Source: Asterionella formosa
Taxonomy: Eukaryota
Assembly: GCA_002256025.1 (NCBI GenBank)
Contig: NKIB01014399.1
Span: forward strand, 1-43,891
Direction: 5' to 3'
DNA length: 43,891 nucleotides
Below, piece by piece: positions 1-24,104 of the stretch (position 1 is the stretch's first letter; every line of letters begins with the position of its first letter). The notes under the pieces were generated by a model. That model did no database searches. It worked only from the letters and a program-made list of their open reading frames with translations, and had not been told where the DNA came from. The position numbers and the translations under genes were made by a program.

Positions 1-1391
1 AGCAGTATTTCCGCCACAGTCATTCCTCTCCGCTGCCCACCAAACAAGCAACCCTGATCATTCCATTCTGAGCAAGCGTGATCGCCACGCTGCTCCAGAA
101 CTATTGACTCTCTCTAGCTGAGTATTCTTCATGTAGCTTCTGATACGAACTCGTAGTAGAATTGTAGCAAAGCGCGTTAGTACAAGAAATGCATTGCTTG
201 GCGGCAATATTGACATCATTGTCAAGCAACAACTATACAAATCAACAAATACGATCAACAACGGCACAATACCACATCTTCAATGAGTAGTCATTGATAA
301 ATGCATTGGTTCTCATGTAGATATGTACAATCGAAACAAAACGACAGTGCGTAACGACAAACAACGATGGAAGCGATCAAAACAAACCACGGAAGCAATC
401 AAATCGGAAAGTCGATAAATACGATCTACAATCCATATTCAGTATTTCACTGTCGTACTCACTTATCCGCTTCAACTAGCATAACAAGCAGCAGACGATG
501 GGATAAAGGAAAGACGAACGTTGCCTATTGCAAGCCCGAATAGAGCAAAGGCAGGCAAGATAGAGTGAGAACTATATTTGTGAGGACGAAATCGGGCATA
601 CGGTACGTAAAATCAATGAATATGTGAACGATATAATTCAACATTTCAGGTCTCGTAAAAATAATACCGAGTCTACAGAGATAATATTATAACGTGTTCA
701 AAGTAAGCGTTAAAGCATGCATGGTTGTTTTTAGTACCACGTACGTATGTAGACTAGATGACTGCCGGTACCGGTAGAATATCCGTTAAGCATCATTACA
801 TACATGACCGGAACAAAAACTTTTTACCAACATCAGATGTATCGATATCATCGTGCGTCCGACGAAATATGGACGATGCGACTACATGAATACCTCGAGA
901 AGACAAGCAATCCAACAATCAACCGCGTCCGTTAGGCAAAGAATCGCTACTGGCGTCATCGCGGAACTGATTTCGCTTCAAACCGGTCATGATGGACGAC
1001 GACTGGCATGGTGAAAGGTGAATTGCCGAAGTCCACTTTTCAGGAGACGAACAAAAACGAGGTGAATTCTAGATATAAATTATTAGAATCTTTATAGTCT
1101 ATAAAATGGTTTCCTTAAGTAGACCCCTTGCCGATTTCGGCAATCCCAGGGCTGGAAAACCGAGGGGCAATTGGTGTCTGTTGTCTTGCCAAAATGCGAA
1201 CATATGAAATATACAAAATATATTTTAATGATGGGCAATATCGGACCTTTGGCAATTTTCGAGGTGAAGATAGGAAATATCCAAAATATATTTTATATGA
1301 TGGGCAATAGTAGGCTAAAATTGACATTTATGCTAAATTTGTGGGCAGTAGGTAAGCGAATGACGCGACGATAGCTAGAGCGGGAATTGCC
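1..1391 (+). mobile_element. Element A copy 1 (non-autonomous; right part only, left end lies outside the window)
   Basis: Direct, highly similar repeat of ~11337-12740. Ends in GACGATAGCTAGAGCGGGAATTGCC (1367-1391), the same 25-mer found at 3543-3567; near-identical versions end at 12740 and start (reverse complement) at 10796, and a 16-bp remnant starts at 43598. Subterminal GGCAAT words are repeated between 1139 and 1310. Confidence 0.85.
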
Positions 1392-1394
1392 TCA

Positions 1395-1578
1395 ACAATA
1401 CCCTTCTCGGCGGCTACTTGCCTTCTCGTATACATGTGTACTCGACTGGGATGGCACTCGTAGGGTGACCTTCTCGCAGCGCCGGGGGCGCCACTCGTAC
1501 GGTCAACCTACTCGCGCCACCCAGCCTCGAACACACGTATACTCGCGCAGGCATGAGACCTCCTCGGGCGTGTATTGC
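1395..1578 (+). repeat. Element B copy 1, ~184-bp imperfect palindrome (MITE-like or att-like)
   Basis: Near-identical reverse-complement copies at 10609-10792 and 43413-43594. Arms pair throughout (CAATAC/GTATTG, TGCCT/AGGCA, GTATAC/GTATAC, CTGGG/CCCAG, GTAGG/CCTAC, TGACC/GGTCA, GCGCC/GGCGC). Confidence 0.9.
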
Positions 1579-1599
1579 TGAAGGCAATATTGAAAGATT

Positions 1600-3077
1600 G
1601 CTTTGTTCTCCCTGTCGAAGGATTTCAATGGCGAGGTTGAGATTCAAGCATTTTTGAAAAAATATGGCTATTTCTGCCAAGCACCATCCATTGGAATACG
1701 GTCACAAGCCCATGGCGTCACAGTTCAATCAAGACGAAGACAGGAAGCTCCACGCACTCCAGATGCAATGTTAGAGGTTCAATTGAAATGCATGATTTGA
1801 CTTTCAACTAGGTGACAGTCGGTTTCTTGGACAAGAAACTACAAACTGTCGTGCTACATCCAAGTGAAGTCGAAAAAATAATGCCCTAATGTTGCAACAT
1901 GATGATACTGAGTGGAAGTATCAAGGTCTACAGGAATGTACCATGATTGAGGATACTGGCAACCCTACATGCATAGTGAAGCTCATACATAACTACCGGG
2001 ATAACCTCCTCTGTTCGCCCGAGATGGTAACTAGCAACCAACCGTTCTTTCAGCGACGTGCTCCTGAGAAGGAGCTCAAGGTATGTATATCTTCGATACA
2101 CTTGTTCTGCCGATATCAGGTACCGGTGATTTTTATGCATACTGGTACAGATATGCATACCTATGTTCTAAGTCATGTGCGTCTCTTCCTGCATTGCTCC
2201 TCGTATTCTTGGTACTAAGAACCGACGCAAGCTAGGGCTAACATACGAGGCAAGACACAAGAAGGGAGACTTCTTTGGTAAAGGCTATACAACTATGCTT
2301 TGCGTTGACTTAGCTACAGCTTCAGGCATGGATAATGCTGCTCGTTGCACTGCCCATCATGGCAGGAGGAAGAGTATGATTTCTTCACTTTTCAACTCTA
2401 GTGTTGCTGCATTACCTACAAAGATTATTCTTGATAAATCCAGGGATGGATCAGCAGAAATAAATGCCAGGTACCAGCTGCCATCAAAGGAAATGCAACA
2501 TCAAGCAAGGATTGCAGTTTTGAGATGTTTGAAGATGCCAAGGACCAGCTTGAAACTCCCGAAATAGCTATATACTTCCGACTTTGCATTGTTCCTCCTG
2601 ATGTGAACAAATCAGTTGGAATTTCAACTCCAATTGACGATCCTATTGTTGACTGCAAAGTTGATGTCTGCTACTGCAGCACCTCCTGCTGCAGCTGCTC
2701 TGGCTCCAGTTCACTACTACTCCCATCTGCCTCAAACACCTCAACACATATACACCTGTTCTGGTCCGCCTCCTCCACAACAAGCAATCTACCATTCCGG
2801 TCCCCCTCCCCCACCCAACAACATTACATATTCCTATCAGCAGCCATATTTTCATTCACTGCCAGCGCCAACACAACAAATGTACTACTCCCATGCTCCT
2901 CCTCCTGCTCCTCACTCCTCCTCAAGCATACTATCATCTGCTGCCTCCAGCCAGCAAAATCAACCACCAGCACCAGTCTACTGCCACCACCAGCCGGCTT
3001 CAACTCCACCACAAATCCATCCACCTCAACCTCACCAATATCAATATACTATTACCCCAGCTCCTCCTCCATATTGA
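1600..3077 (+). pseudogene. Degenerate, 5'-truncated tyrosine recombinase (Crypton-like) with probable Pro/Gln/Tyr-rich C-terminal tail
   Basis: Splicing a phase-0 intron 2081-2219 (GTATGT...TAAG) joins ...NPTCIVKLIHNY...PFFQRRAPEKELK to NRRKLG...GKGYTTMLCVDLATASGM..RCTAH-HGRR...KSRDGSAEINARYQ. HxxR is at 2358-2369, Asp (GAT, one change from His CAT) at 2445 and Tyr nine codons later at 2472, the canonical recombinase spacing. Upstream fragments SRRRQE and SRKNN lie in different frames with stops. Assigning the 2616-3077 Pro-rich frame to this gene is inference. Confidence 0.72.
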
Positions 3078-3401
3078 AAAATTCATTTCTGTGATGACGT
3101 GAACGAAAAACAGAATGTAAGTTTTTTGTGACATTGAAGTTTTAAAAAAATCCGGTTAATGATTTTCTAACCCATCTATATTCCTTTCCTTTTCTTCTTT
3201 CGCTCTCTCCCTACTTGAATCATCTTCTCGTTGCTTACCTTTGTTGTTAATGATTCAATCATGAAATCATACTTTGATTGCAAAAAAATGATAATCAATT
3301 TTTTGAAATCCATATGTTACAATCATTTTTGTTTGAATTTTTCGATGGTCAAATTTTTTTCTTCTCCATGGTGTTCTTTGACCAATTAAAAAAACCAACA
3401 T

Positions 3402-3567
3402 TTACTGTTATTCTGGCTGTCATGCTAAAATCGGCAATTTTAATCCAGAAAAATTCGATGTGCCCCATATTGCCCCTAAATAGAAATTTCTTAACAAATT
3501 ACTTTTGAGCCTAAAAATTACTTACAAGCACCCGAATGGCAAGACGATAGCTAGAGCGGGAATTGCC
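3402..3567 (-). mobile_element. Left end of an element-A-family transposon, downstream of the recombinase pseudogene
   Basis: Reverse complement of ~10796-10965 (e.g. AATTCGATGTGCCCCATATTGCCC, GAGCCTAAAAATTACTTA, CCCGAATGGCAAGACGATAGCTAGAGCGGGAATTGCC). Weaker similarity extends back to ~3140. Confidence 0.85.
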
Positions 3568-3779
3568 GGTTAATTAAAGTGCCCTCTGTTCTTTTTGTCC
3601 TACTTGGCGGATGAGAGTGCTTGCATGATGTTGTGATGTGTCGATCTGGTGTGAAAGCAAAACTAACGCGAGGAACAAGCGAAGAAGTAAAAGCCAAAGC
3701 ATCAGATAGGCCGGTACTCGCACTACCGAATTATACCGAGCAACAACCATAGAAACAATTTAGAAGCAACATATTGTAA

Positions 3780-4769
3780 ATGGCAAAGAACAACAAGAAT
3801 CGACGAAAGAAACGAACGACCAAGACTTCGCAGCACAATTTTGTCGCTGAAGCTGCGCCTGGTTGTGTCATTTGTCGCATTGATGATCCCTCGTGTCCTA
3901 TTCTCGGATGGGAAGGAGATTTAGACGGAGAGGACTTCGAAGGGCAAGATGTTCCTGACATTGCGATAGATCCTGACGAGAAAACTCTTTCTCTCTGCAA
4001 TATTGATACCATTACCAAAGTGGCGTACGTGACAGTTTTCGAGAATCAATGTTGGGGGAAGGATAATTACAAATTTATACAGGGTCAAACAACTAAAAAT
4101 AACGGAAAATCCCTGCGCTGTCAAACATTTATTGTACTCTGTCCGCCATTAACCTTTGTGCACCTTTGCCATGTTGAAATCGATGACATGTTGCTCGTCC
4201 AAATCGAAAGTGATGTTCAAGAATGGAGTCAGCACACAAATCCAGACGATAACCATTCACAAGTCATTGGTTTTCCATTGAGTGGTGGACCGTTTCTATG
4301 TACTCAAAGCGAAGGTGGCAAATTAACTCACTTCTTCAAAGGGAACTTGCACGCAATTGACTTTCGTTGCGAAGTCGGGACTCCGGTTCTTGCAGTGGGG
4401 AATGGCATCGTTTTGCATGCTTGTGATTCAAATACATTGACTGGTATTGCAACCTCGAATTTGTTCACGTGGAACTCAATATTGATACAGCTCGACGAAG
4501 AGAGTAATGATGGCCCTTTGTTTGTGGAATATGTCCACCTTCGATCTGTTACTTGCGAGAAAGGAGATCGAGTGGCCAAGGGTGAAACTATTGGATTTTC
4601 TGGATCTGTGGGATTCTCTCCAGAACCTCATCTACACTTTGCAGCATATCGCTCAATGGAGCCTGATGCTCCAACTGTTCGTGTATGGTTCTGCAGCTTG
4701 GTTGACAACATACCTTATCTGCCCCGAGCTGGCTATAGATACAGTATCAATGGGATGGTCGCGTCATAA
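3780..4769 (+). CDS. Peptidase M23 domain protein (329 aa, intronless) with uncharacterised N-terminal domain
   Basis: ATG-initiated ORF. C-terminal half has M23 motifs: THF..NLHAIDF, GTPVLAVGNGIV, EYVHL, V..GDRV.KGE.IG.SG.VGFS..PHLHF (HxH zinc ligand). Confidence 0.88.
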   Translation: MAKNNKNRRKKRTTKTSQHNFVAEAAPGCVICRIDDPSCPILGWEGDLDGEDFEGQDVPDIAIDPDEKTLSLCNIDTITKVAYVTVFENQCWGKDNYKFIQGQTTKNNGKSLRCQTFIVLCPPLTFVHLCHVEIDDMLLVQIESDVQEWSQHTNPDDNHSQVIGFPLSGGPFLCTQSEGGKLTHFFKGNLHAIDFRCEVGTPVLAVGNGIVLHACDSNTLTGIATSNLFTWNSILIQLDEESNDGPLFVEYVHLRSVTCEKGDRVAKGETIGFSGSVGFSPEPHLHFAAYRSMEPDAPTVRVWFCSLVDNIPYLPRAGYRYSINGMVAS

Positions 4770-6759
4770 TGAAAATATTGCGAAGGCTCCAATGATGATT
4801 TTTTAATGGGTTGTTGCAATGAATCCCTTTTTTCATTGAAGTCCATCAAAATATGGTAATCATTCATATGCATCAAGCCAGCCAGTGCACTAGAATTATA
4901 CAAGTATGTGTGCGCTGTATATTGATTATATTGGTTGGATTTTATTTTGGGGCTTACTAATATGTATAGGGGTGCTTGAATTCCCAGTATATACATATGT
5001 TGAAGAAGTTCCTTCTTATGTACAAGCGATGCCTTGATGTTGGAATCACAAAATAGAACATGTATCACTGTTTTGATAATTGATGGTCTGTTTCACTGGC
5101 AAACTCTTCTGATTGTAAATTCATGGGTGATTTTATATGTCAATTTGCATAATGATCATACAAGTTAACTCACTTTGCTTACAGGCTGTGTATGTATAGG
5201 AGTTAGTAAAAAATGAATAATAGTTATTTGATGGCCTGATCATTGAATCTGATGCTATTCTTCACCATCCCCCTGATCATCTATGTGACGACAAAAATTC
5301 AATGACATTTCAACAATGAAGGAGATCCTGGAGACCGCAAAGCTTTCATTGATTTCTGGCCACCTGCATGAGTATCGCCCCCAGTAGCCCACCAATGTGG
5401 ACTCTGAAACATGTTGCCCTTCCACATCTTGAAGATTTTGCGTAAACAATGGTCTTATCCCCACCACAGCATCTTAAATGCATCTGCCTCTCAGAGATTC
5501 AAGGATGAAGGAGGAGGGTTAGCGGAAATCGCTTTCAACAATAATCAGCAATCAGCCGGTTCGCTTTCAACTGACACTTGCCAAGTTGAAGACTTCCTCA
5601 CACAGGTTGGACTTCATCCATGCAAGCATGGTCAGCCAAATGGATATTTCTCTATACCAATTCAACACCTACATTGGATGGTGTATTGCAACAATGTTGG
5701 AACCATGTGCTGTACCAGTGCGAATATTAACTCAGGACGATGCATGATGATGCCATGACTTAACAAATATATGAGTTTCGTTTTGTGTTTGCCTAACGGT
5801 TTTCAGGAGAAATTATAGATGATTGCATTTTTACAAAAAATTACTTAGCAACATGCTTTAGCCCAAATTGAGATTCATGATATATGCAGTATAATAGTTT
5901 GTTTTAATGAAAATTAAAACTTCGTCAAAAGTATTGAATATCTGGCAAGCATTTTCAGGGATGCATCCTGTGGTTACATGATGCTCAAGAAATTTTTACC
6001 AGAAGTTCTACACTTTTGATGAAGTTACATTGTCAATAACCTGAATGAGACACCCAATTCCTCATTTTTCAAATTGGCAGAGTACTTAGGAGATTAGCAT
6101 GCAAATCTCAAGTCTGAACGAGGCCAAAACATGATTTAAGTGCCCTGGCATGATCTGAATCCTCTCTGCACATGACATCATGTCCTCCATGTGTTAGCAT
6201 GGCCCCTACTAACAACACAAGTGTACATAACATTATGCTTCAACTTAATTGGCATGCTATAATCACAACGACCATGCCAATATTCTGTTGCTCTACTCGA
6301 CAAAAGAACAACCTCCCGTGCCGCTTGAAATAGCCATATCTCTGCCATGAGCAGCGCTACCTGTAAAAATAACAACAAGCGGCACAGGAGCAGGTGACTT
6401 CCTGGTGTAACTATGATTTTTTGAGTTGGGCATTACATATCCATCCCTACATGACCAATGTATTCACATTGAAAAGCTTGTTGCGCTTGATAGTGGACAA
6501 GCGGGTTAGAGCTGAAACTGGAGAAGACTGCCTCAAATACGGTCCTAGCTATAGTAGTTACAAAGATGTTGTTGCTACAATCATGACTTCGCAACATCGC
6601 TGTGCAATGGTCTTCAATTTTAGCTTGTGATGAATGAACCCAATAATGACAACAACGAGATCTCAGATGCAACAATTAAATGATAATCTGTTTTATAGCC
6701 CATTCCTACTCCCTTTTTTCAAGGCAAGTGCTCATTGTGCTGCCTGTCAACAAGACCTG

Positions 6760-7050
6760 TGCTTCCCTAGTTTTGTTAGGGTAGGTGAGTCTCCAACCAC
6801 CTTTCGCGAAAGGTGATTGTCTTCGCCGCAGCCTTAGGGGAAACTCCGACCGCCAAGGAAAGCATCACAAGCTTCTTGTAAGAAGGGGGCAAACCCACTA
6901 TTTCTTGCACACCAGGCAAGACCATGCGGGACGGTAAAGAGTGTGGGAGTCGAACCCAAAAATTGCTGCTATAAAAATATTGCGGGAATCGAACCACACA
7001 ACTTCAGATCAAAGGCAACGTGACCACCAACTACCGTGAGCCAAGCTTCA
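6760..7050 (-). other. tRNA-related (SINE-like) or structured RNA-like segment
   Basis: On the minus strand: A-box-like TGGCTCACGGTAG (7031-7043), two B-box matches GGTTCGATTCCC (6984-6995) and GGTTCGACTCCC (6945-6956), then several hairpins including the perfect palindrome CACCTTTCGCGAAAGGTG (6798-6815). No complete cloverleaf. Confidence 0.4.
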
Positions 7051-7812
7051 GAGAGGGATTCCTCTGTTTGTGTTGAAAAACGATTCAGCGGAATATATCA
7101 TAAAGCAAAAGCGGGCATGAGCCCCACAACTCGTACAATCAGATGAAAATCTGTACAGAGTAAAAATGACGCTCATGAGACCCACATGAGCATAAGGGGT
7201 CATTTAAAGTCAAGGAATACATAAGGACAAGAACAAATATTCGCATGAAGTGGTGGATTTGAATGCAAAGGAGGATTTTTATGCAGGGGCTCAACATAGT
7301 AGAGTCAATGATGTTCAAGCAGTGGTATGCAAGAAAGGATAACATCAGCAAGTCAATCTCATCCTGTAAACAAATGACCAAAGCAGCATTGGAGATACCA
7401 AGACACTTCAAAGATAAATATGCTGTTGTCTTACACAATGAATACTGATTGGTGAAAGGGGAAAGTTTTTATCCAGTTGTGTTGGATAGAGGAAGCTGAA
7501 ATTGAGTACAAACTTTCCAAAAGATCCTTAAGGGAAGATGGCTCGTTGGATCACATATCATCCTGATTTTTAAGATATACTCATGCACAAGGATCAAGAG
7601 TCATCAAATCAAATAATAACTTCAGGGAAGAACTTATCATCCAAGCCCCTTCAACACACAAGAGCCATTAAATTAGAATATTTATCATCATCATGAATGA
7701 AAGGGAGTACTGAAGTAAAGACAGCTATCCAAGAATTTCAAGATTCATTATTATGGATGACCTCCAGGCAAAGTAGCATAACTTCTGATGTTACAGAATT
7801 TGCAGATCAGCA

Positions 7813-8152
7813 CCCTTCAGCTGATGACACATGTCCAGGGATTATTACTGGCTACACTAAAATAAGCAGTCACAATATAGAATACAATTTTCAAATTATC
7901 ATGTCGTACTATCCTGGAGGCACTTTCAAAAACTGTATCATAACGCACAGTTGCGATGTTCTCTGGGGATCATATATTATGATACCACAGAATGTGCAAT
8001 TTCTTCCTTCAGATGACACATGTGAAGGTTGTTTTATTGATTACACTTAGATAAGCAGTCATTATATAGGATAGTATGATTAACAAATTTCCCTGTCTTA
8101 TCCAGTATTTTCAAGGAATGGCTGTATTCTAACAGTTACAATGTTCTCTAGG
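7813..8152. repeat. Old degenerate tandem duplication, period ~190 bp
   Basis: CCTTCAG..GATGACACATGT...TACACT..ATAAGCAGTCA..ATATAG.ATA...CTGTAT...ACAGTT.C.ATGTTCTCT occurs twice, starting at ~7814 and ~8006. Confidence 0.7.
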
Positions 8153-8543
8153 TAGGCGCATTATCCTTATCATTTCCCTTTGCTAGGTTCCTGTTAAAAC
8201 TGCTTTGAACAAATTATTACTTTTCGCTTATAAGTCAGAAATTTTCAAGGTGTAGCTGAGGATGTAGCGCTCCTCTATATGTGAAGGAGCTACACTGAAC
8301 ATTCACATGCATGTATGATCGATATAAAAATGTGACACACAGTGTCAGTCAATCAATACAGCGCGAAGTTAACCATCATGTCTTCAGAGTATACATTCAT
8401 ATTTACGCAAGCATGAATGAATTAACCTTATTATCACATACGATTCTCGAATGCACATAAATTTGCTTTGCCACATGATAGCTAGTTGTAATCATACCAA
8501 GTGTATGGTAAATAATCATTATGAAACATTGTAATCCATCTTC

Positions 8544-8864
8544 CCTGTAAAACATTCATTTATTCAACAGTTTGAACCTCTACAATTAAAATGCGTCTTG
8601 TAAATATTCATATCGTCTGTTCTTGATGGCATATCATTGTTGAATCAATGGTTGAATAATAATCTGCCACCTCTAATGAACATCCAGAGCATCTACAATG
8701 ATTTCCTGTGAAACATTCATTTATTCAACGGTTTGAACCTCTACAATAAAAATGCGTCTTATAAATATTCATATCGTCTGTTATTGATGGTATATCATTG
8801 TTGAATCAATGGTTGAATAATAATCTGCCACCTCTAATGAACATCCAGAGCATCTACAATGATT
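8544..8864. repeat. Tandem duplication, 161-bp unit x2
   Basis: Units start at 8544 and 8705 (CCTGT.AAACATTCATTTATTCAAC...CATCTACAATGATT); six substitutions seen. Confidence 0.95.
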
Positions 8865-9265
8865 GTACATGGGTCTGGAGCTTTTGTGGTCACAAATAGG
8901 ATTCGGATTCCGTGACTAACAACATTTGTCCTCCAGACAGACTGAAAATTTCCAAAATAATACAATAATCTCCTCCTGACTCGGCTGCTCTGAGAAAATT
9001 ATCTGCATAACTTTTGGTTCAGCAGACTGAGATCTCGCTCAAATCAACGACTTCTTGCTGGTAAGCAAGTAAGCACTTTCGGAGTACCTTTATCCAATAT
9101 CAAATATCACACACACGAAACGCTTACCAGCAATATGTTTGATTGCTTGAGGAAGCTCGTAAATCGGCTGCTCTGAGCAATGGAACCAGCATGAGTACTA
9201 GGGCAATTCCCAGATGAAAAGATTTGGGAGGTTCTGCTGGAGGGTACTAGTGGTGTATCCAAAGA

Positions 9266-10012
9266 AAGTTTTGTTGGTACCTTCGGTAGGATCAAAAAGG
9301 ATTTTTCATCCAAAAATCTACCAATCGACCTATCCATGAACTCACTAGATAGTGATATATGGATGTGATTACTAGATGCTGTATAAATAGGATGGCATTC
9401 TTCTTGTTTAGCATACCATCAGCCTACACAATGGAATAGCAACCGTCGTTAGAATATTGGCCTCATTCATATTGCTTTAGTTGTCAATAGTTCTTATCCA
9501 ATGCAACCATAATCAAGTTTTGTTGGTACCTTCGGTAGGATCAAAAAGGATTTTTCATCCAAAAATCTACCAATCGACCTATCCATGAACTCACTAGATA
9601 GTGATATATGGATGTGATTACTAGATGCTGTATAAATAGGATGGCATTCTTCTTGTTTAGCATACCATCAGCCTACACAATGGAATAGCAACCGTCGTTA
9701 GAATATTGGCCTCATTCATATTGCTTTAGTTGTCAATAGTTCTTATCCAATGCAACCATAATCAAGTTTTGTTGGTACCTTCGGTAGGATCAAAAAGGAT
9801 TTTTCATCCAAAAATCTACCAATCGACCTATCCATGAACTCACTAGATAGTGATATATGGATGTGATTACTAGATGCTGTATAAATAGGATGGCATTCTT
9901 CTTGTTTAGTATACCATCAGCCTACACAATGGAATAGCAACCGTCGTTAGAATATTGGACTCATTCATATTGCTTTAGTTGTCAATAGTTCTTATCCAAT
10001 GCAACCATAATC
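9266..10012. repeat. Tandem triplication, 249-bp unit x3
   Basis: Units start at 9266, 9515 and 9764 (AAGTTTTGTTGGTACCTTCGG...GCAACCATAATC). Copies 1 and 2 look identical; copy 3 has two substitutions. Confidence 0.97.
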
Positions 10013-10608
10013 ATTGATGATGATGATTGACATGGCATGATGAATTTACTAAATCATTCCATAGAATTAAATAGCAAGCCAGCAATACTAAGGAGAAATA
10101 ATGGCATAAATGGCATTTTAATTCGGTGCTTTGGCTGGGTGCACCAGCCGAGTACATCGGGTAGCCGCCCATAGATTGTAGTTTGTTGGAAATTTAGCAT
10201 CACGAAATATTTGTTTTGCATGAATATACATAGAGTCGTTTTATTCAATTTTCATTCATTTATGTATCACTGGTGAATGTGTATGAATTTACCAGTCGTT
10301 GATAATGAATCATGATAAAACACATGCATGCCATTCACGCTCAGCCACAACCTTGTACTCGATCACCTCTCTCACCATGATAAATATTTCTGCTTGTCAT
10401 TGTTTGATCCTTACCTTTTAAGCCTTGTTGCTATATTATCAACCAGCAATGTCTCCTTCCTGATTGAGAACAGTTCCGGCCACTCATGTGTACCATTCGT
10501 TCCATGTTCCTTGAGATTGTTCGATGCATGGATTTGATTTTCAGGCATAACTAAACCAGCGCAAGTCATCGAAGCCGAAACACTTACCGGTACTCCTAAA
10601 TGCTGAAG

Positions 10609-10792
10609 GCAATACACGCCCGAGGAGGTCTCATGCCTGCGCGAGTATACGTGTGTTCGAGGCTGAGTGGCGCGAGTTGGTTGATTGTACAAGTGGCGCC
10701 CCCGGCGCTGCGAGAAGGTTATCCTACGCGTGCCATCCAAGCCGAGTACACATGTGTACGAGAAGGCATGTAGCCACCGAGAAGGGTTTTGT
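10609..10792 (-). repeat. Element B copy 2
   Basis: Reverse complement of 1395-1578, preceded by TGC-TGAAG (10601-10608) and abutting the left end of element A. Confidence 0.9.
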
Positions 10793-10795
10793 TGA

Positions 10796-12740
10796 GGCGA
10801 TTCCCGCTCCAGCTATATCGTCTTGCCATTCGGGTACTTTTAAGTAATTTTTAGGCTCTAAGTAATTTCTTAAGTAATTTTTATTTAAGGGCAATATGGG
10901 GCACATCGAATTTTTCGGCAATAAAATTGCCGATTTTAGAATGACAACCAGAATAACGGTAATATGCGTAGAGATGGTACAACAAGCGTAAAACACACGA
11001 GAATGATTGTAACATGCAACATCAATGAAAATTGAAGATGATGTTTGGAGCAACCTAAGTATGAAATGCGATGTAATAAGTAGCATCAAATGAGAAAAAG
11101 AAAAAATTGTTTTGGGTTAGAAATGAAGTAAAAAATAATAAGAGTTTCAATGGAGATGTATGCATTGTGATATTGTAGTACTTACACAGGCAATTGAATT
11201 TCCATCACCACACAATCAATGACCGAAATAAGAAGGGAAGGAGCTGAACCCAATCTTGACCTGCATCGTTATGTAGCGTAGATGATCTGCTTGCTGTAAC
11301 CAAGCACATCGCTGTAGCTAGGAGCCTGACACAAGTTGCAGTCTTTCCGCCCACAGTCCTCGTTCCTCCCACCAAACAACCCTGATCATCATTCCATGAT
11401 TCCAATCCATTCTGATTGAGTATAATCGCCAGGCTGCTCCAGCACTATCGACTCCCTCTAGCTGAATATACATAGCTTCTGATAAGAACTCGTAGTAGAA
11501 ATGTAGCAAAGCGTGTTGTTACAAGAAAAGCATTGCTTGGCGGCAATATTGACATCATTGTCAACGACTATACAAATCAACAAATATGATCAACAATGGC
11601 ACAATACCACATCTTCAATGATTAGTCATTGATAAATGCATTGGTTCTTATGTAGAAATATACAATCGAAACAAAACGACAGTGCGGAACGACAAACAAT
11701 GACGGAAGTGATCAAACAAACCATGGAAGCAATCAAATCAGAAAGTCGATAAATATGATCTACAATCCACATTCAGTGTTTCACTGTTGTACTCACCGAT
11801 CCGCTTCAACTAGCATAACAAGCAGCAGACGATGGGATAAAAGCAAAACAAATGTTGCCTATTGCAAGCCCGAATAGAGCAAAGGCAGGCAAGATGGAGT
11901 AAGAACTATATTTGTGAGGACGAAATCGGGCATGAGGTATGTAAAATCAATGAATATGTGAACGATATAATGCAACATTTCAGCCAGGTCTTGTAAAAAT
12001 AATACCGAGTCTACAGAGATAAATTATAATATGTCAAAGTAAGTGTTAAAGTATAGCTTAAACCATGCATGGTTGCTTTTAGTACCACGTACGTAGTATA
12101 TAGACTAGATGACTGCCGGTACCGGTAGAATATCCGTTAAGCATCATTACTTACATGACCGGAGCAAAAACTTGCCACCAACATCAGATGTATCGATATC
12201 ATCGTTCGTCCGACGAAATATGGACGATGCGACTACATGAATACCTCGAGAAGACAAGCAATCCAACAATCAACCGCATCCATTAGGCAAAGAATCGCTA
12301 CTGGCGTCATCGCGGAACTGATTTCGCTTCAAACCGGTCATGATGGACAACGATTGGCATGGTGAAAGGTGAATTGCCGAGTCCACTTTTCAGGAGAGGA
12401 AGAAAAACGAGGTGAATTCTAGATATAAATTATTAGAATCTTTATAGTCTATAAAATGGTTTCCTTAAGTAGACCCCTTGCCGATTTCGGCAATCCCAGG
12501 GCTGGAAAACCGAGAGGCAACTGCTACAAATTGTAATGCCAAAATGCGAAGATATGAAATATACGAAATATAATTTAATGATGGGCAATATCGGACCTTT
12601 GGCAATTTTCGAGGTTAAGATAGGAAATATACGAAATGTATTTTATATGATGGGCAATAGTAGGCTAAAATCGACATTTATGCTAAATTTGTGGGCAGTA
12701 GGTAAGCGAATGACGCGACGATAGCTAGAGCGGGAATTGC
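10796..12740 (+). mobile_element. Element A copy 2, complete ~1.95-kb non-autonomous element with terminal inverted repeats
   Basis: Starts GGCGATTCCCGCTCCAGCTATATCGTC and ends GACGATAGCTAGAGCGGGAATTGC. Left end matches 3402-3567 (reverse complement), and the right 1.4 kb matches 1-1390. No convincing ORF. Confidence 0.88.
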
Positions 12741-12745
12741 TTAAA

Positions 12746-12839
12746 GCAATACTCGCCCGAGGTGGCTACATGCCTTCTCGTATACATGTGTACAGGTACT
12801 CGCAGCCATGAGACCACCTCGGGCAGAGGGGTGTAATGC
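12746..12839 (+). repeat. Element B copy 3, internally deleted (~94 bp)
   Basis: GCAATACTCGCCCGAGGTGGCTACATGCCTTCTCGTATACATGTGTAC...TACTCGCAGCCATGAGACCACCTCGGGC...GTGTAATGC followed by CTTCA-GCA; both outer arms of B are kept and the centre is lost. Confidence 0.85.
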
Positions 12840-12943
12840 CTTCAGCATGCAACATATGTACTGTGCGCTACCATCAGGTTGTTTACCACAAAATTCTCGT
12901 ATGGAACAAGCAAAAAAAAAACCGATAGATCACAACATCAACC

Positions 12944-14697
12944 ATGACTATCTTTAAGCTCTCGGCTTTATTCACAACAGGGATACTGCTACTTGCTAGC
13001 CATTCTGAAGGGCACAGCTTCTACATTAGCAAGCAAAGCTTTTCGAACCGCAAGTCTGTTCTTCTTCAAATTCGCGGAGGCGCCACCAAAGCTAAACTAG
13101 ACGTTGCTTCTCGTACTTCAAAACAACCAACAACCACAACTGAAGGAGCCTCGATTCCTAGTGAAGTGTTTAATCTGGTAAAAGGAATTGTCGGAGTTGG
13201 CGTGCTTAGTTTACCCGCTGGTGAGTCATAGACTAGCTCATATTTACATATTTGGTACCACCAAAGAGTGAACCCCTTATACGTCTGTGTCACAACCACC
13301 AATCTAATGTCACAATAACAATTCCGTTGACAACATTCACAGGTGTTGCTGCTTTCGGAAATGCACAGTCCGCCGTCCTCCCTGCAATTCTTTTGATTAC
13401 TATCATTGGTATTCTTTCTGGATTCGGTTTCGCTTTGATCGGAAAAGTGTGTGCCTACACGGGTGCTACCTCTTGTGAGTGATTCTCGAATATATTTTTC
13501 GTTCTTGGTTGTCCCCTCCTAATCTCTTTACTTTCGTACTCAGACCGAGATGCCTGGAGCAAGACTGTCGGTGAATCCACTAGTTGGATTCCTGCTTGGT
13601 CTTGTACATTGAAGACCTTTTTTGCCTGTCTCGCTTACAGCATGGTTCTTGGCGATACCTTTTCCAAGTTGCTTGGTACCGTTCGTAATCCCACTCTACT
13701 CGTTGTAACGGGGGTTATTTTATTGCCCCTTTGTTTGCTGAAGAATCTGAAGTCCTTGGCCCCATTTTCTCTGCTGGGTGTGATGGGCATGGTACGTTTG
13801 GGTTACTGGAATCAATTGAACCAATCAACTTGAAGCTCACAATAGCATCCCATTCTGCCCGACATTTCTCGTTACAGGGCTTCACCGCGTTGGCCATGAC
13901 GGTAAGATTCCTCGATGGCAGTTACTCAGAGGGCGGAAATTTGCTGGGTCATGTTGGAACGGATCTGGTTCCTCGCTTTGGAGACAAAGGGATCGTATCC
14001 GTTTTTTCCAGCAATGCACTCATCTTGGTATGCATGTTGAGCACAGCCTACATGGCTCATTTTAACGCCCCAAAGTTTTATCTTGAGCTCAAGAATAATA
14101 CTATGGCAAGATATCATTCTGTTGTGTCTTGGAGTTTCGGCATATCCATCCTCCTCATGGGAGCCATGACTACATTGGGATTCTTAACCTTTGGTGAAGC
14201 CTGCAGTGGCTTGGTCTTGAACAACTATGCGTCGTCCGATGTTTGGATGAGCTGTTCTAGGATCGCAGTAGCCGTTTCTCTGGTATTTTCGTAAGTAAAT
14301 CGCGCCAAATCTGGTGATTGTGTTTTGCAATCCTGTGAACTGATTCATTTTCAATAGATACCCACTTGCATTTGTTGGCTGCCGTGATGGCGTTTTGGAT
14401 TTGTTGCAAGTGCCTTCTGAAAAGAGAACCTCTTCGACCCTCAATTTATTAACCGTTGCACTTTTGGCTGTCTTGACGACTCTGGCGTGCAACTTGAAGG
14501 ATGTGTCCTTTGTTTTAGCCTTCGGAGGCGCTACGCTTGGCAATGCACTGACATATGTCTACCCTGCTATCATGTACCGGACTGTTGTCAAGCAGCAAGG
14601 AAGAAAGGAGTCCACTGGAGTTGCGGTTGCCATGAGTTCTGCCGTTTTGGGTGTTGTTATGGGTGCTATTGGAGCTAAAATGGCACTCGGGAAATAA
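12944..14697 (+). CDS. Amino acid transporter (Aa_trans/AAAP, SLC38/AVT-like), 469 aa, 5 exons, signal peptide plus IRGG motif
   Basis: Exons 12944-13220, 13343-13474, 13544-13791, 13878-14290, 14358-14697; all introns GT-AG; total 1410 nt in frame. Motifs FNLVKGIVGVGVLSLP, LPLCLLKNLKSLAPFS, AYMAHFNAP, GFLTFG, LNNY, SYPL, YVYP. Confidence 0.93.
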
Positions 14698-15174
14698 TCC
14701 TAGCTTTTAGGAACTTTTCCACTCCATGTATCTATCGATAATGCTATAATAAAAAAGGCGCTGTCGTCAAAGTTCAACGATTTCCCTGGACAAAGCGCTG
14801 TATTGGATGGTAGAGATCTTGGTTGTACCTAATTGACTATTCTAAATGAAAATTAAGAAAGACGCAAAATGACTTGTCAAGATAAGTCGAACGCAACAAG
14901 TTTTCAATCAGTCCCATGCGTTCAAACATTGCAGCCATAATAAGTCGTCAGTATAATTTACCAATTGGCTGTTCCTCCACAGTTATTGAGAGTCGTCTTA
15001 GCAGAACTAACAAACTTACAACTCTCGCACGTCGTCTCGACTTGTGACTGGAAAATTTCCGCGCAATCGAACAAGTAACAGACTGCTAAGTAGGAAATTA
15101 TTACTTGCCCAAACTCAGGTCGAAAGGCGACGAAGGCATTACGCAATGCACATTTGATCGATGAGACTTGTACA

Positions 15175-16893
15175 CTATCCCAAGACTGACTTTAGTGCCA
15201 TCTTTGCACCTAGAACTCCCATTCCAAGTCCAAGTCCTGCCGAGCCCAATGCGAATTTGACTTCATTCTTTAAGCCCTGCGGTGCGTCTTTCATCTTGTC
15301 AACCGATCCACGGAACATCAATGCTGGAAAGATATAAATCAGGGCATTTCCAAGAGTAGCTCCTCCAAAGGCCAAAACGAAGGACACATCCCTGAGAACC
15401 AAAGCAAGGCCAGTGATCCCTGACAAACAAGCCACAGTCAATAAGTTCAATCTCTTATTGGATCGATCTTTCATATTGAGCATGTCCAAGACTCCGTCGC
15501 GAACGCCATTGAATACAAGCGGATAACTTTGAAGGACAAAGGGGGACGTGAGACGCTGATCAAAATATTACAATCCAGGCCACTGATTGCCAGCTACTTA
15601 CGAAAATACTAAGGAAACAAAGACAGCGATTCTGCTCAAACTCATTAACCCATCAGCATTCGCGTAATTGTTGAGAATCAATCCATTACTGGCGGATCCG
15701 AAGGTTAAGAAACCCAACGATGCAATCGCAGAAAACAATAGGATCGAGATTCCAAACGAGCTGAACACCACGGTATTGAAACGTCCCACAGTGTTGTTCT
15801 TTAACTCTTTGTAAAACTTTGGTGCGTTGAAGTGGGCCATATATGCTGTCGACAGCATGCTCACAAGAATGAAAACGTTTGGGGACAAGGCAGCAGCAGC
15901 ACCTGCATTGCCGAACTTTGGAGCAAAATTATTAGCCACAACGAATTTCCCACCAACTGCATAAGCTTTTCCAAAGTACCGAATGGCCATGGCGATAGCC
16001 GTATAGCACTGTGACGAAATTGTTGGATTTAACAGAGGTTTGTTGAGTCCGTAATAGAGGAAGCGAAAATAGGCAATCGTCTGAACGTACCATTCCGAGA
16101 CTCCCCAGCAATGAAAAGGGGGCCAAACTGGATAAATTCTTCATCCAACACAGTGGTAGGAGAAGTGTGGAAGTAACAGCCAACAAGGCTGGCGTCCTGC
16201 CGACGGTGTATCCCGCGGTTTGCACGAGACTGGTGGTTGTGTCTGCCAAAATCATACTATAGGCCAAGACAGCGCAGCTAGTCTTGAAGGTACAGCTAAC
16301 AGCCGGCAACCAACTGCTACCCTCGGCGATAGACTTACTCCATGCTTCACGATAACTGTTTGCGCCAGTATAGCTACACACTCGACCAATCAATGAAAAG
16401 CCATACGCGGATAGTGCCCCAATGGAGGCAACCAGGGCAACTGCGGGAATGACAGCCGATGGTGCGTTTCCAAAGGCAGCAATTCCTTACATCAAAGAAA
16501 ATAATTATATGTAAGATGAGTTCACGGGGTTTGTGGTCTATCGAAAAGGCAAAAAGGCTCCATCGGTGGAAGCGTAACAATACAAGGAGATCAACAACTC
16601 TGGCCAGAGCGCTACAACTTACCTGCTGGTAAACTCAAGACGCCAGCACCTACAATTCCCTTGACGAGATTGAAGATTTCGCTTGAAATGCTGGCAGTGC
16701 CTCCGCTGGTTGGCTGTTCAGGAGTTGCAACTGAGATGCTTTCATAGAGCTTAGTGCTGTATTGGCGACCATGAAAAGGTGCAGCTATGGATCCTTTGCT
16801 CAATGGAGATTTCACTAGATTACCAGCTGGCAAGAGAGAAAAGCCGGTGACCGCGGCCGATAAAGCCAGGAGAGTAATAGCTCGTAACTGCAT
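15175..16893 (-). CDS. Amino acid transporter (Aa_trans/AAAP), paralogue of the neighbour, 474 aa, 4 exons, bipartite plastid-type presequence
   Basis: Exons 16893-16623, 16485-16091, 16008-15602, 15526-15175; GT-AG introns; total 1425 nt in frame. Motifs FNLVKGIVGAGVLSLP, AYMAHFNAPKFY, GFLTFG, VLAFGGATLGNAL. N-terminus MQLRAITLLALSAAVTG-F. Confidence 0.93.
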
Positions 16894-17015: not shown

Positions 17016-17215
17016 GGTACCGGTACCTGGTACCAGGTATCTGGCAGTCAATTCTCAAATACACCTTCCTCCCAGTCGGGTCTACCTTGTAACAGGTAGA
17101 CTGCCAGTACTGGTACTGGTAGTTTGCCTTTCACATTCTTGGTGGTACTGTATCAGCCTAGTACCAGCTACCAGGTACTCCTTACAAGGGTACCTGGTAC
17201 TAGGGTACCAGGTAG
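17016..17215. repeat. GGTACC(A/T)-rich quasi-palindromic array upstream of the minus-strand transporter
   Basis: TGGTACCGGTACCTGGTACCAGGTA at 17015-17039 and GGGTACCTGGTACTAGGGTACCAGGTAG near 17188-17215. Confidence 0.7.
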
Positions 17216-17282
17216 TATTATATTCGTGCGTTGCACTTGTTGACCGCCGATCATTTGCCGCCGAGCAAGCTGTGTTACCAAC

Positions 17283-17366
17283 ACGTTGCGGTAATTTTGC
17301 TGAACTAAAGATTTAGCTATCTTTATCCGATATTAAATTGGTTTTTTAAGCAAAATGACTGCAAGT
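17283..17366. mobile_element. Small MITE-like element, copy 1 (~85 bp)
   Basis: Imperfect ~21-bp inverted ends (GTTGCGGTAATTTTGCTGAA / TTAAGCAAAATGACTGCAAG); core ACTAAAGAT.TAGCTATCTTTATCC shared with 40357-40447. Confidence 0.75.
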
Positions 17367-19849
17367 AACCCAATTTTGTAGACTTTCAGCAAATTTAATG
17401 CATTTCCTGAAATTTCCTGAAAGTCATAGTCATTTCCTGAAATTAATAGGAATTTTCTGAAAGTCATAGTCATATGCTGTGTGTACGCTCTTTTTTGCAA
17501 CTAGAAGAATATTTCCTCTTTTGTTGTATTATTCATTACAAATTCCTTAACCATGATGTGCCTTTGAATAAGCGGCAAGTGCAACCTAGACTAGCCATTC
17601 ATTTCTATACCATTGTTTCTTGTGGGAGTGACGACTATTTACCAGGATCCTCATAGAAACCGTTAAGGTTGCGGCCCCGGCTTAACCCCAGTTTGGAGCA
17701 AAATATCGCTAGGGTTTTAAAATGGCATGGAACAGGGAGTTCTTTTCCGTGAATTCCCATGATTCGATTGTCCATTTGAATCCTTAAATTGAATAGTAAT
17801 TGACGGAAGATTGATAGAGTTCCATGATTTCAAACAAACAAAAATGATATTTACACGTTTATATTATATCTTTGTTGGTGAATGTAAATATGATACATAT
17901 TACTCAAACCAAAACACATATAGAAATCATTAGTATGCCGGTATGTAAAATCAAAAAAATGATATTTAAGTGTTTATATTGAAGCTAGTACGTTGCTGGA
18001 GCGATGTAGATTTAATATTTCTCTACGCCCAAAAGCATCTACTGTCGGTATATAAATCATATAATCAGTGCGTAGTACCGGTATGTAAACTTGGTTCATG
18101 ATAATGGAAAAACCACCGGTACCTGTAGTACTGATTTTACTTACCAGTATACAGTGGATCTAATACATGTGGTTCAAGTATGGCTAGCGTGATTTTACAG
18201 GATCGGGAAACTCCGGCCAGCAATCTGGAACAGATGGGTAAATTCAATTCAACCAATTAGAATATATGTACTAGCGATCCGAGAACTTGTTAGCATGGAG
18301 TCTTTTCGGACAGAGAATTCTGCAGGAAAACATACCTACGCAAGATTCCTAGCTATGTCTACGAGAAAGCTTTCACACGTACAAATTCCGTTTCCAATAT
18401 TTTGAGATACGCACTGTTGAAAAAGCCAATCGGGTACTAGCTACCGGTAGACTTTTTGGAGGAGGATCGTTCTACATCAGCGGGGCTTCATGTATAAAGA
18501 ATGCACATCCGTGTACTACCCTATAACTTCAGGAGATCAACTGCAGCAGTTATCCATTGTAGATTTTCAAAGCTTCGTAGACCCATAAGGTAAGCTCAAT
18601 CTTCAGTTTTTGTCAGCAAAGGGAGCGATAAATCACATGGTTCTATTATTGCTCTGTAAATTTATTTTACATTTTAGCCGTCCATTTCATAACAGGAGCA
18701 TTCTTTTGAACGCATCAGTAAGTTGTGGTGCTGCCTGGCTGATGCCGGTTTGTTGTTTCAATCCGACTGCCCCGAGAAACAGTTGAATACTACCACATCT
18801 GTGTGTTGCTTTCTGCTGCTGCTAGTTCCATCATTTGAATTACTGACACACTGTTGTTATGTATATCTTTGCAGGTCAATGAAGAATTCATTTCTAGGAC
18901 AAAAAGGAAGCCATTGTGTGATGCATTCATGTTGCAACTTTGTACAATGATGCCTGTTCAAGAGTGAATAATTTTCCCCTTCTGAATGAACGGCTTCTCT
19001 TCGTCTTGCAATGTCATTACAGATGTTTCATAATGACTGCCTTCTCAAGACTGAAGATTCCATTCTGATTGAACAGCTTTGTTTGATTGCATTTCGAGAT
19101 TCGTTTCCCATGTAATGTGAAATACTGGTAGTTGAATTAGTAATCAACATTATTTGATAGTACTTTTAAATTACGTTAACAAATTTAATACAAGCTACAT
19201 TACATGACCTATATTATAGAATTACGTGAAAAAAAATATAAGGCAATGTGAACTAAATTACAGAATTAATTGAAGTATTTCAAATAATTTCGTGAAGTGT
19301 TTCAAATAATTACGTGAATGTTATCAAGTAATATAGTGATGATCAGGAATGCATGATGCATGATACTCTGATCAAATACTTAATGTGATGTATTCAGATA
19401 ATATATAGATATATTCAAGTGAGCATTTTGATGTATTCAACTAATTCGTGTGATCCATTCAAAATCAACTAGGCTTATATAGGTGAAGGTCACTTCATGT
19501 AATACTTGGCTTAGATGTTGGGAGTGAGTCGAAACTGAATGAGTTTACATAAAACGTGCGCTACCAGGCCTTCCTGGAGTAGCTAATTGTCTGTCGTACA
19601 TTTGTTTTTAGTCAGGCTTCTTGAGAAGGAAAAAATTGATGCATATGGCTGGTTGCAACTTGAAGACCAATATAGTAGGATACGTAGGCCTTAGTATAGA
19701 TTTTCTTTTGCATTTAATAATTAAGAGTAAAAAAATTGTGATGCATACAAAAATTGAAACAAATTCTTTGATATATAAATATTGCCCTCCGCACATTTCC
19801 CCTCAAAAGTTATGTAACATTGTTGAGGATCTGTTGTCATCGATCATGT

Positions 19850-21000
19850 TTGTTAATTTTGCTGCTCGCTTCTTATTTGCTTTGTTGCTCTGTTGTTCGC
19901 TATGTTAGATTATAGACACAGGTTGCCTTGCAGAAAGTTGTGCTGAAATTGAGGGCACAGCAGTGTGTTTTGATTTGTTTGACAAGCTTCTCAGCACTGA
20001 TGGGGTTCGCTTCATGTGTTGTTGTTTCAACTTCGCTGTCCATCCTGTCATCTTGTTATTTGTCAAGATCTTTCCCAACCTTGAAGTATGCACATATACA
20101 TTGTATTGCTTGCCTTGAGAAACTTCTAATCCTTTTTGTTGTTAACACTTTGTCTGTTGACATGCTCTCTCGTACCACAGACCTGAAGTTCTTTTTACCC
20201 TTTTTCCTCTTCAGAGAAACCCGACGGTAAGAATTCTTGGCGCAAGCCCAAGAATACTTGATTCCCTCTCCTGCAATTTCATAGTGACATTTTGCCGTTC
20301 GGTCAACAAGTACTCCCATTTCCCTTCCCATTGACTGCAATAGTGTCTCCTCTTCCTCGAAATCAAGACAGCCAGTTTCCATCAACAACTTCAAAGAAAA
20401 ATCTTTCAGGACAAATCCAAATGTATCCTGCTTTCCCTTCAATGTGGCTGCAGCTCTACAATCTCAATTTGTCAATAAATCCATGCTCCCAAAGTACCTG
20501 CAACAGACCTTTTTTGCCTTCCATAACTTTTGCTTTAGTCTCTTCAATTGGTAAGTTGTGTTCTCACGCCTTTGATTGTATTGCTTGCTTCTTACCCTTT
20601 GCTCCATGTGTGGTTTGAATTTGTTTCAATTTTGACTTGAAATCCTTAGAGTCCAAGAAGTCACAGTGCAACAATAGCTTACAGCACTCTGCTCCTCCTT
20701 GTACCCCTTAAGCAGGTTTATTGAATTTCGGATGGACAAGTGCCGGCCGGTAGGGCCTTTTCATGTATATATTTCGACCAGGTTTTCTTTGGCATATTGT
20801 TGAATACTCATGCAGATTTCAGGGTTGGCGTGGAGGGAGGAGGGTGATAGATCTTTTGAGTTTATTTTCAGTTTGAGCTTGTGGTGTTTTCGTAAATTGT
20901 GGTACCACTTGGAGACAATGTAGCCATGCATGTGTGACAAGTGTGAGAACAGTGCAACATTGTCCCCAGCTCCAGATATTCATGTCATCTTATGCAATTT
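19850..21000 (-). pseudogene. Decayed IS630/Tc1/mariner-type transposase, internally deleted
   Basis: Fragments KKGLLQVLWEHGFID (~20470-20515) and CLDFEEEETLLQSMGREMGVLVDRTAKCHYEIAGEGIKYSWACAKNSYRR...RIRSFSRQA..ICAY (20056-20442), matching the PKxHxE...IExxWxxAK block. Multiple stops and frameshifts; boundaries approximate. Confidence 0.8.
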
Positions 21001-23808: not shown

Positions 23809-24104
23809 TGAAATGAAACTTGAAAACAATCCTCCTATCATATTTTCAAAATTATGATGGTGTAAGCCCACCTGGAAATTTAAATTGATATAGTGCCATG
23901 AACAATGACTGCAGCATGCCTGCCCATTCTTTGCCTGTCATTCAAGTTCTACATGTCTGGAACCTTTACACTTTGAGGAACTCTAGAAAAACCAAGATAA
24001 TGCTAGCAAGAAGGATTAAGGCGCTTTTCTGGTCTTTGCTTCTGTTGACTTCTTCAAAATGTAACACAAGGGTGGAAAAGGCTTGAACAACTTTGCCGTG
24101 GAAT

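Follow-up and report, generated by a model that had tools for sequence, protein, structure and literature searches.

What moves the repeats that lie beside a decayed, recombinase-like gene at the start of contig NKIB01014399.1 of Asterionella formosa? The whole stretch analysed here (the window) is 43,891 nucleotides (nt) in length and contains copies of a non-autonomous repeat with inverted ends (A), copies of a foldback repeat (B) that adjoin A, and a gene copy at 1609–3566. An earlier note on this DNA had proposed that one tyrosine recombinase mobilises both A and B and stacks them into cassette-like arrays at ATTGC-N4/5-GCAAT sites; all of the motifs and coordinates that it listed were recovered when the window was re-read. 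We conclude that A, B and the gene are probably parts of one DNA-transposon family of a eukaryotic microalga, with a master element encoding a Crypton/DUF3504-like recombinase. The window itself is eukaryotic nuclear DNA, as it contains spliceosomal-type introns, a reading frame with HECT, SPRY and UBA domains, and amino-acid-transporter genes.

The link between the gene and repeat A is provided by a complete element on a metagenome contig. P0001, a database paralog of 368 amino acids (aa) with 86% identity to the window exon at 1868–2080, was used to fetch five such contigs, L001–L005. L001 (4,374 nt) carries a complete element of 3,986 base pairs (bp) at positions 43–4028, which opens with GCAATTCCCGCTCTAGCTATCGTC and closes with GACGATAGCTGGAGCGGGAATTGC, the same 24-nt inverted ends as those of A. 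The subterminal DNA is also A-like: the left part of the contig (19–541) is 77% identical to the right part of A (approximately 520 nt), and the right part (3866–4030) is 97% identical to the left end of A over 167 nt. Compared with L001 at the R-type end, A copy 2 of the window shows 73–77% identity over about 520–550 nt. The interior of the element holds one multi-exon gene. The other open reading frames (ORFs) of L001 and L004 have no Pfam match, and no transposase, reverse transcriptase or RNase H domain was found in them. Because ends and subterminal DNA are shared with a gene-bearing element, A is a non-autonomous member of the gene's family. The earlier note's placement of the recombinase-like gene and repeat A in one family with the same inverted ends is thereby borne out, L001 having A-type termini, A-like subterminal DNA and this gene alone. 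That note had named a DDE transposase and 3-bp duplications in full-length A-family copies as signs that its proposal was wrong, and L001 shows neither.

Other contigs join the gene to the two ends separately. L005 (93% identity to L001 123–1903) independently carries the gene together with the R-type subterminal region, and the window copy at 1609–3566 connects the gene to the L-type end. In L002, positions 1–165 upstream of the gene consist of A-internal sequence (95% identity to window 99–267), whereas L001 has unrelated DNA there, so that A can be traced to a variant of the element that carries the gene. Judging from these contigs, the putative autonomous elements exist in at least two structural variants. 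Near-identical copies of the element (98–99% identity) are present on several contigs. A scan for the terminus in the genome-contig and viral-contig collections gave no matches, and P0001 was likewise without a match in the viral contigs.

The copy of the gene in the window is truncated and decayed. Its homology to L001 starts at 1609 (L001 2013): the upstream exons are absent, as are the first approximately 190 residues of the main exon (P0001 numbering). In what remains, the reading frame is broken by gaps, including ones of 2, 62 and 1 nt, and by in-frame stops, and the sequence SRHGS of intact copies reads SRDGS, with D in place of the second H. This copy of the putative recombinase gene is a pseudogene. 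An internal pseudo-site (L001 AAGGCATACC, compared with the start of B) was considered as the point of truncation and rejected, as the two are not collinear and 18 extra nt lie between them. An intron-free Peptidase_M23 gene (3780–4769) starts 213 nt past the element end at 3566, so that the decayed element lies in the upstream region of this gene.

The identification of the gene product as a Crypton/DUF3504-like tyrosine recombinase is indirect, and draws on one sub-threshold match, one transitive match and language-model neighbours. P0001 matches DUF3504 with an E-value of 0.0035 (17.8 bits, compared to a Pfam cut-off of 29.7 bits) over positions 25–133 of the 162 in the profile; Kojima and Jurka showed that this domain is derived from the Crypton recombinase (PMC3212892). 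A phmmer search with the last-exon peptide returned 16 proteins, mainly short fragments. The homolog P0006 matches both the window peptide (E 8.3e-10) and the last exon of L001 (39% identity over 110 aa, E 9e-23), and itself matches the PHROG family phrog_216, annotated 'integrase' (E 9.2e-6). In the ESM Atlas, the neighbours of P0001 residues 70–360 include DUF3504 (0.96), Phage_int_SAM_1 and _4, NDC10_II, DUF3435 and XerD clusters; for P0017, 22 of the 30 named matches are in the Phage_integrase set. Bacillariophyta are the group in which the nearest protein cluster is found most often. A scan of NCBIfam gave nothing relevant, and A1, the profile of the last-exon relatives, retrieved no relatives that were longer and uninterrupted.

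Two further properties of the gene are consistent with a functional recombinase. Intact copies and the homologs P0002, P0006 and P0008 keep the series GVRGS...HGRRK...SRHGS...ARY, in which R (GVRGS), H-x-x-R (HGRR), H (SRH) and Y (ARY) were picked out by eye as a candidate tetrad; a tetrad of R, H-x-x-R, H and Y is described for tyrosine recombinases in PMC13465315. The ratio of nonsynonymous to synonymous substitution rates (dN/dS) is 0.15–0.21 when the window copy is compared with L001–L004 (144–149 codons, 42–51 differences) and 0.06–0.12 when L002 is compared with L001, L003 and L004. These low ratios show that the gene was kept functional by purifying selection while it was carried in the element.

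The family is abundant, and the metagenome contigs also locate its boundaries. Logan contigs of four runs (freshwater and algal metagenomes) were aligned to window positions 1–3800 at an identity of at least 85%. In run X1, summed contig depth, which is not true copy number, was 1.8–3.2 million for A, 1.7 million for B, 1.9 million for 3430–3556, 8–52 thousand for the gene and 745 for the unique flank. These values indicate that A and B lie thousands-fold, and the gene tens-fold, above the unique flank. The depth of B was never above that of A in any of the four runs. Behind 3566 the contigs diverge (agreement 0.41–0.42 among 23, 16 and 16 contigs in X2, X5 and X6, respectively), from which it follows that the element ends at ...GGGAATTGC. 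Before 3402, 159 X1 contigs run on into A-internal sequence, with 27 of 30 consensus letters matching 10963–10992; 3402 is the point at which the gene-bearing and non-autonomous forms part. The segment from there to the terminus (3402–3566) is an inverted copy of the left end of A (89% identity over 167 nt).

The 24-mer GCAATTCCCGCTCTAGCTATCGTC has three exact copies in the window (1367–1390, 3543–3566 and 12717–12740), all on the minus strand, compared to zero expected from 100 shuffles of the window. No target-site duplication of 3–10 bp was found at any of the three complete units, namely A copy 2, the composite B-A-B' (10601–12847) and the L001 element, and moving the boundaries by as much as 4 bp in either direction changed nothing except that chance 2-mers appeared at some shifts. 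The absence of a duplication around the composite, as reported in the earlier note, is therefore confirmed and holds for the other two units as well. Taken together, a single recombinase-like gene, inverted ends and the lack of a duplication favour conservative recombination over transposition by staggered cuts. The palindromic AATT in the tip could be the crossover core, with GC as target bases.

The subterminal DNA has a repeat structure of its own. GGCAAT occurs at 13–15 copies per kilobase (kb) in the terminal 200–300 bp, compared to 0.62 per kb in 13000–43400 (an approximately 20-fold difference), and in A copy 2 they are concentrated towards each of the two ends. Approximately 120 nt inside the L-type end lies a palindrome, CGGCAAT-AAA-ATTGCCG (10916–10932), that is kept as CGGCAAT-N3-ATTGCCG in L001 (3896–3912). 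A protein dimer may bind at this palindrome.

Foldback B is approximately 185 nt in length, and its predicted single-stranded DNA fold (-42 kcal/mol, z -4.67) was equalled by none of 200 shuffles. A shorter form lacking the centre also occurs as contig joints (1442->1546) in runs X1, X2 and X6. Scans of the window against Rfam and for tRNA genes gave no matches, so neither A nor B derives from an RNA gene. The junction at 43405 was found as first described, but the B copy there is not a solo one, since 16 nt of A terminus are attached to it (to 43613). Throughout, the arm2 tip of B faces the A tip. The tips are themselves alike: that of A (GCAATTCCCGCTC) and that of B arm1 (GCAATACACGCCC) match at 10 of 13 positions, counted by eye.

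The junctions have an arm-spacer-arm form, the significance of which depends on the motif. ATTGC-N5-GCAAT occurs twice (1574–1588 and 12736–12750) compared to 0.08 times expected, and 0 of 100 shuffles reach two. ATTGC-N4-RCAAT also occurs twice (1386–1399 and 43590–43603), with 0.54 expected and 16 of 100 shuffles reaching two, and on its own has no significance. These occurrences are a consequence of the repeat copies and not independent events, because A ends in ...ATTGC, B starts with (G/A)CAAT, and the two are adjacent. The junction ATTGC-CTCA-ACAAT is present at 1386, at 43590 (reverse strand) and at the left end of L001, with a mutated variant at 10788–10801. It is also present in the contig consensuses of a subfamily with a diverged inner terminus (AGCGG -> TTTGT; loose ends 1378/1384, runs X2 and X5). 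A single junction, ATTGC-TTAAA-GCAAT at 12736, deviates. Beyond the outer tip of B, the sequence is CTTCAGCA in three of four cases and TGAAGGCAAT in one (1579). The outer 5-mers of the composite, TGAAG and CTTCA, stand in inverse rather than direct orientation: they form part of a perfect inverted repeat of 14 nt at the composite ends (10600–10613 and the outer side of B', pair I17) and so are not a shared crossover core. A separate motif, TACCGGTA / CCGGTA, recurs by element boundaries, at 43614–43660 (after the A stub ending at 43613), 10575–10595 (near the left flank of the composite) and L001 4029–4070 (after the right end of the element). This recurrence could reflect a target preference or another repeat family.

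The preferred reading, one family with a recombinase-encoding master, can be put as a mechanism. The master form, complete in L001, is approximately 4.0 kb in length, with 24-nt terminal inverted repeats, the tip GCAATTCCCGCTC, GGCAAT-rich subterminal regions and a single multi-exon gene. Repeat A is a 1.9-kb non-autonomous derivative that kept both ends and was multiplied to roughly thousands of copies, and B is a foldback with tips (G/A)CAATAC... resembling the A tip, placed tip-to-tip against element ends. The recombinase would bind the GCAAT-tipped ends and the GGCAAT repeats, and the element would be excised as a circle in which the joined ends form a lox/FRT-like site, with inverted arms around a short spacer. 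The circle may then be re-inserted by conservative recombination at half-site-like sequences, in which case no bases would be duplicated. We prefer to see B as a terminal foldback module, for the most part passed on together with the element, because it is nearly as abundant as A but not more so, is never alone here, and keeps its junction across subfamilies. Occasional end-to-end recombination would account for the variant junction at 12736–12750 and for the truncated gene abutting B at 1579–1608.

The junctions invite two other explanations. As first proposed, A and B would be separate mobile modules of one recombinase, stacked like cassettes by site-specific recombination at ATTGC-N4/5-GCAAT. 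The resemblance of the two tips fits this proposal, as do the existence of two types of A-end/B junction (CTCA+ACAAT and TTAAA+GCAAT) and the placement of B at both ends of A copy 2, at one end of L001 and at neither L-type end of the gene-bearing copies. If the arms are read as ...ATTG / CAAT..., the spacers become 6–7 bp, within the 6–8 bp usual for tyrosine-recombinase sites (PMC3212892, excerpt), and the truncated gene copy abuts the outer site of B at 1579–1608. We nevertheless consider stacking unlikely: no free-standing B was seen, the sole candidate carrying its 16-nt A stub; the depth of B, at or below that of A in 4/4 runs, argues against independent amplification; the outer spacers TGAAG and CTTCA do not form a direct repeat but an inverted one; and the CTCA junction, identical at three loci, mutated at a fourth and found again in the diverged subfamily, points to descent. 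Inheritance of A and B as one unit fits this conserved junction at least as well as repeated stacking. Of the idea that one recombinase moves A and B and stacks them into arrays, the connection of A to the recombinase is supported; no sign of B moving by itself was seen, and its stacking appears unlikely. Alternatively, the arm-spacer-arm pattern could be without mechanistic meaning, GCAAT-ended repeats having come to lie side by side through nested or adjacent insertions and deletions. This is somewhat unlikely in our view, because the subfamily with the diverged inner terminus keeps the tip, CTCA spacer and arm2 tip, suggesting constraint on the junction, and further copies of the tip motif GGCAAT lie in the subterminal DNA. 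It is in keeping, on the other hand, with the frequency at which shuffles reach the ATTGC-N4-RCAAT count (16/100), with the dependence of the motifs on repeat copies, and with the approximately 20 nt of unexplained filler in the junction 1579–1608.

DDE transposition yields a target-site duplication, and its absence from 3/3 units is a difficulty for the remaining alternative: that A, B and the 4-kb element, with their inverted ends, move by ordinary cut-and-paste through a DDE or other transposase encoded elsewhere, the DUF3504-like gene being a passenger or a domesticated DNA-binding protein. This is improbable, given that L001 has neither a second gene nor a transposase domain, that the gene is under purifying selection while in the element, that the H-x-x-R, H and Y motifs are kept in intact copies, and that several contigs carry copies with 98–99% identity. 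Several observations speak for such a transposase or weigh against the reading that we prefer. Inverted ends of 24 nt, subterminal repeats and abundant short derivatives are typical of DDE families, and in the excerpts Cryptons are described without inverted ends (PMC3212892, PMC13465315) and as usually low-copy (PMC3212892). Many DUF3504 proteins are, by the same excerpts, inactive domesticated forms (PMC3212892, PMC13465315), and the recombinase assignment was built on weak or transitive matches. The DUF3504 match of P0001 is below the Pfam cut-off and is given by one of the 11 sequences of alignment A2. The PHROG integrase match is absent in nine of the 10 last-exon relatives (the A1 members), P0006 being the sole exception. 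When nine phmmer relatives were compared with Pfam, the seven short family members had no match, and the long proteins P0015 and P0016 matched only unrelated families (HYR, Na_Ca_ex and others). Searches of PDB sequences with profile A1 and with P0006 gave nothing. AlphaFold models were unusable, with predicted local distance difference test (pLDDT) scores of 43.8 for P0017 and 34.4 for P0001, the domain being split by an intron, and the R-H-R-Y residues were assigned by eye. The window peptides (1868–2218 and 2172–2567) have no Pfam match even at E<=10, a lack of a tyrosine-recombinase profile match that the earlier note had itself named as evidence against its proposal; the probable recombinase identity comes by way of the intact paralog P0001 (DUF3504) and the homolog P0006 (integrase), not from Pfam matches of the window peptides themselves. 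The duplication check covers three complete units, the abundance is expressed as depth rather than copy number, and the unit flanks share no direct repeat, although a simple Crypton model (with a 4–6 bp shared core) predicts one.

A more far-reaching version of the preferred reading is offered tentatively, as a possibility to which we give less credence than its rejection. The family may represent a new class in which the inverted ends are lox/FRT-like half-sites: the circle would carry a near-perfect palindromic full site, its insertion would be conservative and free of duplication, and the enzyme would fuse elements and foldbacks tip-to-tip into arrays because every end of the family would itself serve as a good target. 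Such a system would be a eukaryotic counterpart of cassette stacking, having driven a burst of derivatives resembling miniature inverted-repeat transposable elements (MITEs) to thousands of copies.

Cryptons are rare and low-copy, with ends that are hard to define and a mechanism that is largely conjectural. The present family resembles them in having a single gene, putatively for a tyrosine recombinase, without reverse transcriptase, a DUF3504-type signal and no target-site duplication. It shares the presence of introns in the gene with Glomhopper, a DUF3504-type CryptonA (PMC13465315, excerpt), and a non-autonomous derivative that keeps both ends with CryptonI-1N1_RPro (PMC3212892, excerpt). 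As far as the excerpts describe them, Cryptons have no terminal inverted or long direct repeats but 4–6 bp terminal direct repeats, and their copy number is usually very low (PMC3212892); they are not associated with inverted ends (PMC13465315); and CryptonS, found in oomycetes and the diatom Phaeodactylum tricornutum, has mostly TATGG ends (PMC3212892). In contrast, the ends of the family described here are 24-nt inverted repeats without TATGG or an evident direct repeat; GGCAAT is repeated subterminally, derivatives reach roughly thousands-fold depth, and a foldback module is attached. The 'Crypton' label suggested in the earlier note thus suits the enzyme but not the ends, which are 24-nt inverted repeats (PMC3212892, PMC13465315; excerpts). 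A search of the open-access literature found no Crypton with both inverted ends and MITE-like derivatives.

Comparison with other systems gives a similarly mixed picture. Starships occur only in filamentous fungi, as giant elements of tens to hundreds of kb that transport cargo genes; they have a DUF3435 captain at the 5' end and form direct repeats at insertion. They are tyrosine-recombinase DNA transposons, as the present family probably is, and terminal inverted repeats are known from some of them (PMC13465315, excerpt); a DUF3435 cluster is among the ESM neighbours. Unlike Starships, the element here is 4 kb long with a single gene and no cargo, resides in an alga, has MITE-like derivatives and shows no Pfam DUF3435 match. 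Cre/loxP and Flp/FRT share the arrangement of inverted arms around a short spacer, the junctions here being arm-spacer-arm in form as judged from the sequence alone, but their sites are fixed on plasmids or phages and are not transposon ends. Sites of tyrosine recombinases have arms of 11–13 bp and spacers of 6–8 bp (PMC3212892, excerpt). With DDE MITEs and foldback elements the family has in common inverted ends, subterminal repeats, a short non-coding body, high abundance and the foldback B; it differs from DDE MITEs in the lack of a target duplication in 3/3 units and in a full-length relative that encodes a recombinase-like protein and not a DDE transposase. DIRS1-like retrotransposons encode a tyrosine recombinase, as the element here putatively does, and in some cases have inverted terminal repeats, but they carry reverse transcriptase and RNase H, and no such domain was found in the 4-kb element.

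The copies of A, B and the gene in the window are listed in Table 1.

Table 1. Map of repeat A, foldback B and the decayed gene-bearing element in the window.
Feature	Position	Strand	Description
Repeat A, copy 1	1–1390		Non-autonomous, cut by window start; 91% identity to A copy 2 over 1,351 nt
R-type terminus of A copy 1, GACGATAGCTAGAGCGGGAATTGC	1367–1390		Exact 24-mer match
Spacer CTCA	1391–1394		Between A copy 1 and foldback B
Foldback B	1395–1578		Arm2 tip ACAAT facing A, arm1 tip ATTGC outward; inverted-repeat pairs I1 and I2
TGAAGGCAAT	1579–1588		Beyond outer end of first B
Filler, ~20 nt, not assigned	1589–1608		Between outer end of B and truncated gene; L001 alignment begins at 1609
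Decayed copy of putative autonomous element, 5'-truncated	1609–3566	+	79–89% identity to L001 2013–4033
Main exon, remainder	1609–2080	+	
Intron	2081–2219	+	GT..AG
Last exon	2220 to ~3076	+	HHGRRK...SRDGSAEINARY, then proline-rich tail
L-type subterminal region, after 3' non-coding DNA	3402–3566		Terminus at 3543–3566
Outer TGCTGAAG	10601–10608		Outside inverted B of composite
Foldback B, inverted	10609–10792		Arm1 tip GCAAT at 10609–10613; 92.6% identity to B 1391–1578, opposite strand
Spacer TGAG	10793–10796		Between inverted B and A copy 2
Repeat A, copy 2	10797–12740		Complete non-autonomous element, 1,944 bp; L-type end GCGATTCCCGCTCCAGC..., R-type end ...GAGCGGGAATTGC
Spacer TTAAA	12741–12745		Between A copy 2 and B'
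Short foldback B'	12746–12839		B form without centre
Outer CTTCAGCAT	12840–12848		Outside B'
Foldback B	43413–43593		Arm1 tip at 43413, arm2 tip ends at 43593; 96.8% identity to B 1391–1578, opposite strand
A-terminus stub, 16 nt	43598–43613		3' of B 43413–43593, after TGAG spacer; followed by unrelated DNA

The remainder of the window contains several other features. Two tandem arrays, at 8541–8862 (2 x 161 nt, 96% identity) and 9266–10012 (3 x 249 nt, 99–100%), are both intergenic, with the M23 peptidase gene on one side and the composite element on the other. Two Aa_trans gene fragments occupy opposite strands of 13689–16486 with an 81-nt inverted repeat between them (14499–14579 / 15311–15391), and this pair looks like an inverted gene duplication. 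In 17170–24345, three pairs of inverted repeats (17189–17216/24140–24167, 17663–17723/24282–24342 and 17795–17824/24172–24201) bracket approximately 7 kb in which GGTACC-rich motifs occur; the ORFs inside, among them one of 359 aa (22729–23808), are without a Pfam match. This region may be another, unrelated mobile element. The giant product of an uninterrupted frame of 4,957 codons at 24884–39757 is a HECT ubiquitin ligase in which SPRY and UBA domains are also present.

A family with sharp 24-nt ends, a master copy and many short derivatives would give exact recombination sites for testing. It would also show that recombinase-driven elements can yield MITE-like bursts, which annotation pipelines would misfile as DDE elements, and would possibly be a source of a compact eukaryotic recombinase/site pair. 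For the alga itself, the finding matters to the annotation of its genome, in which this family is a major repeat.

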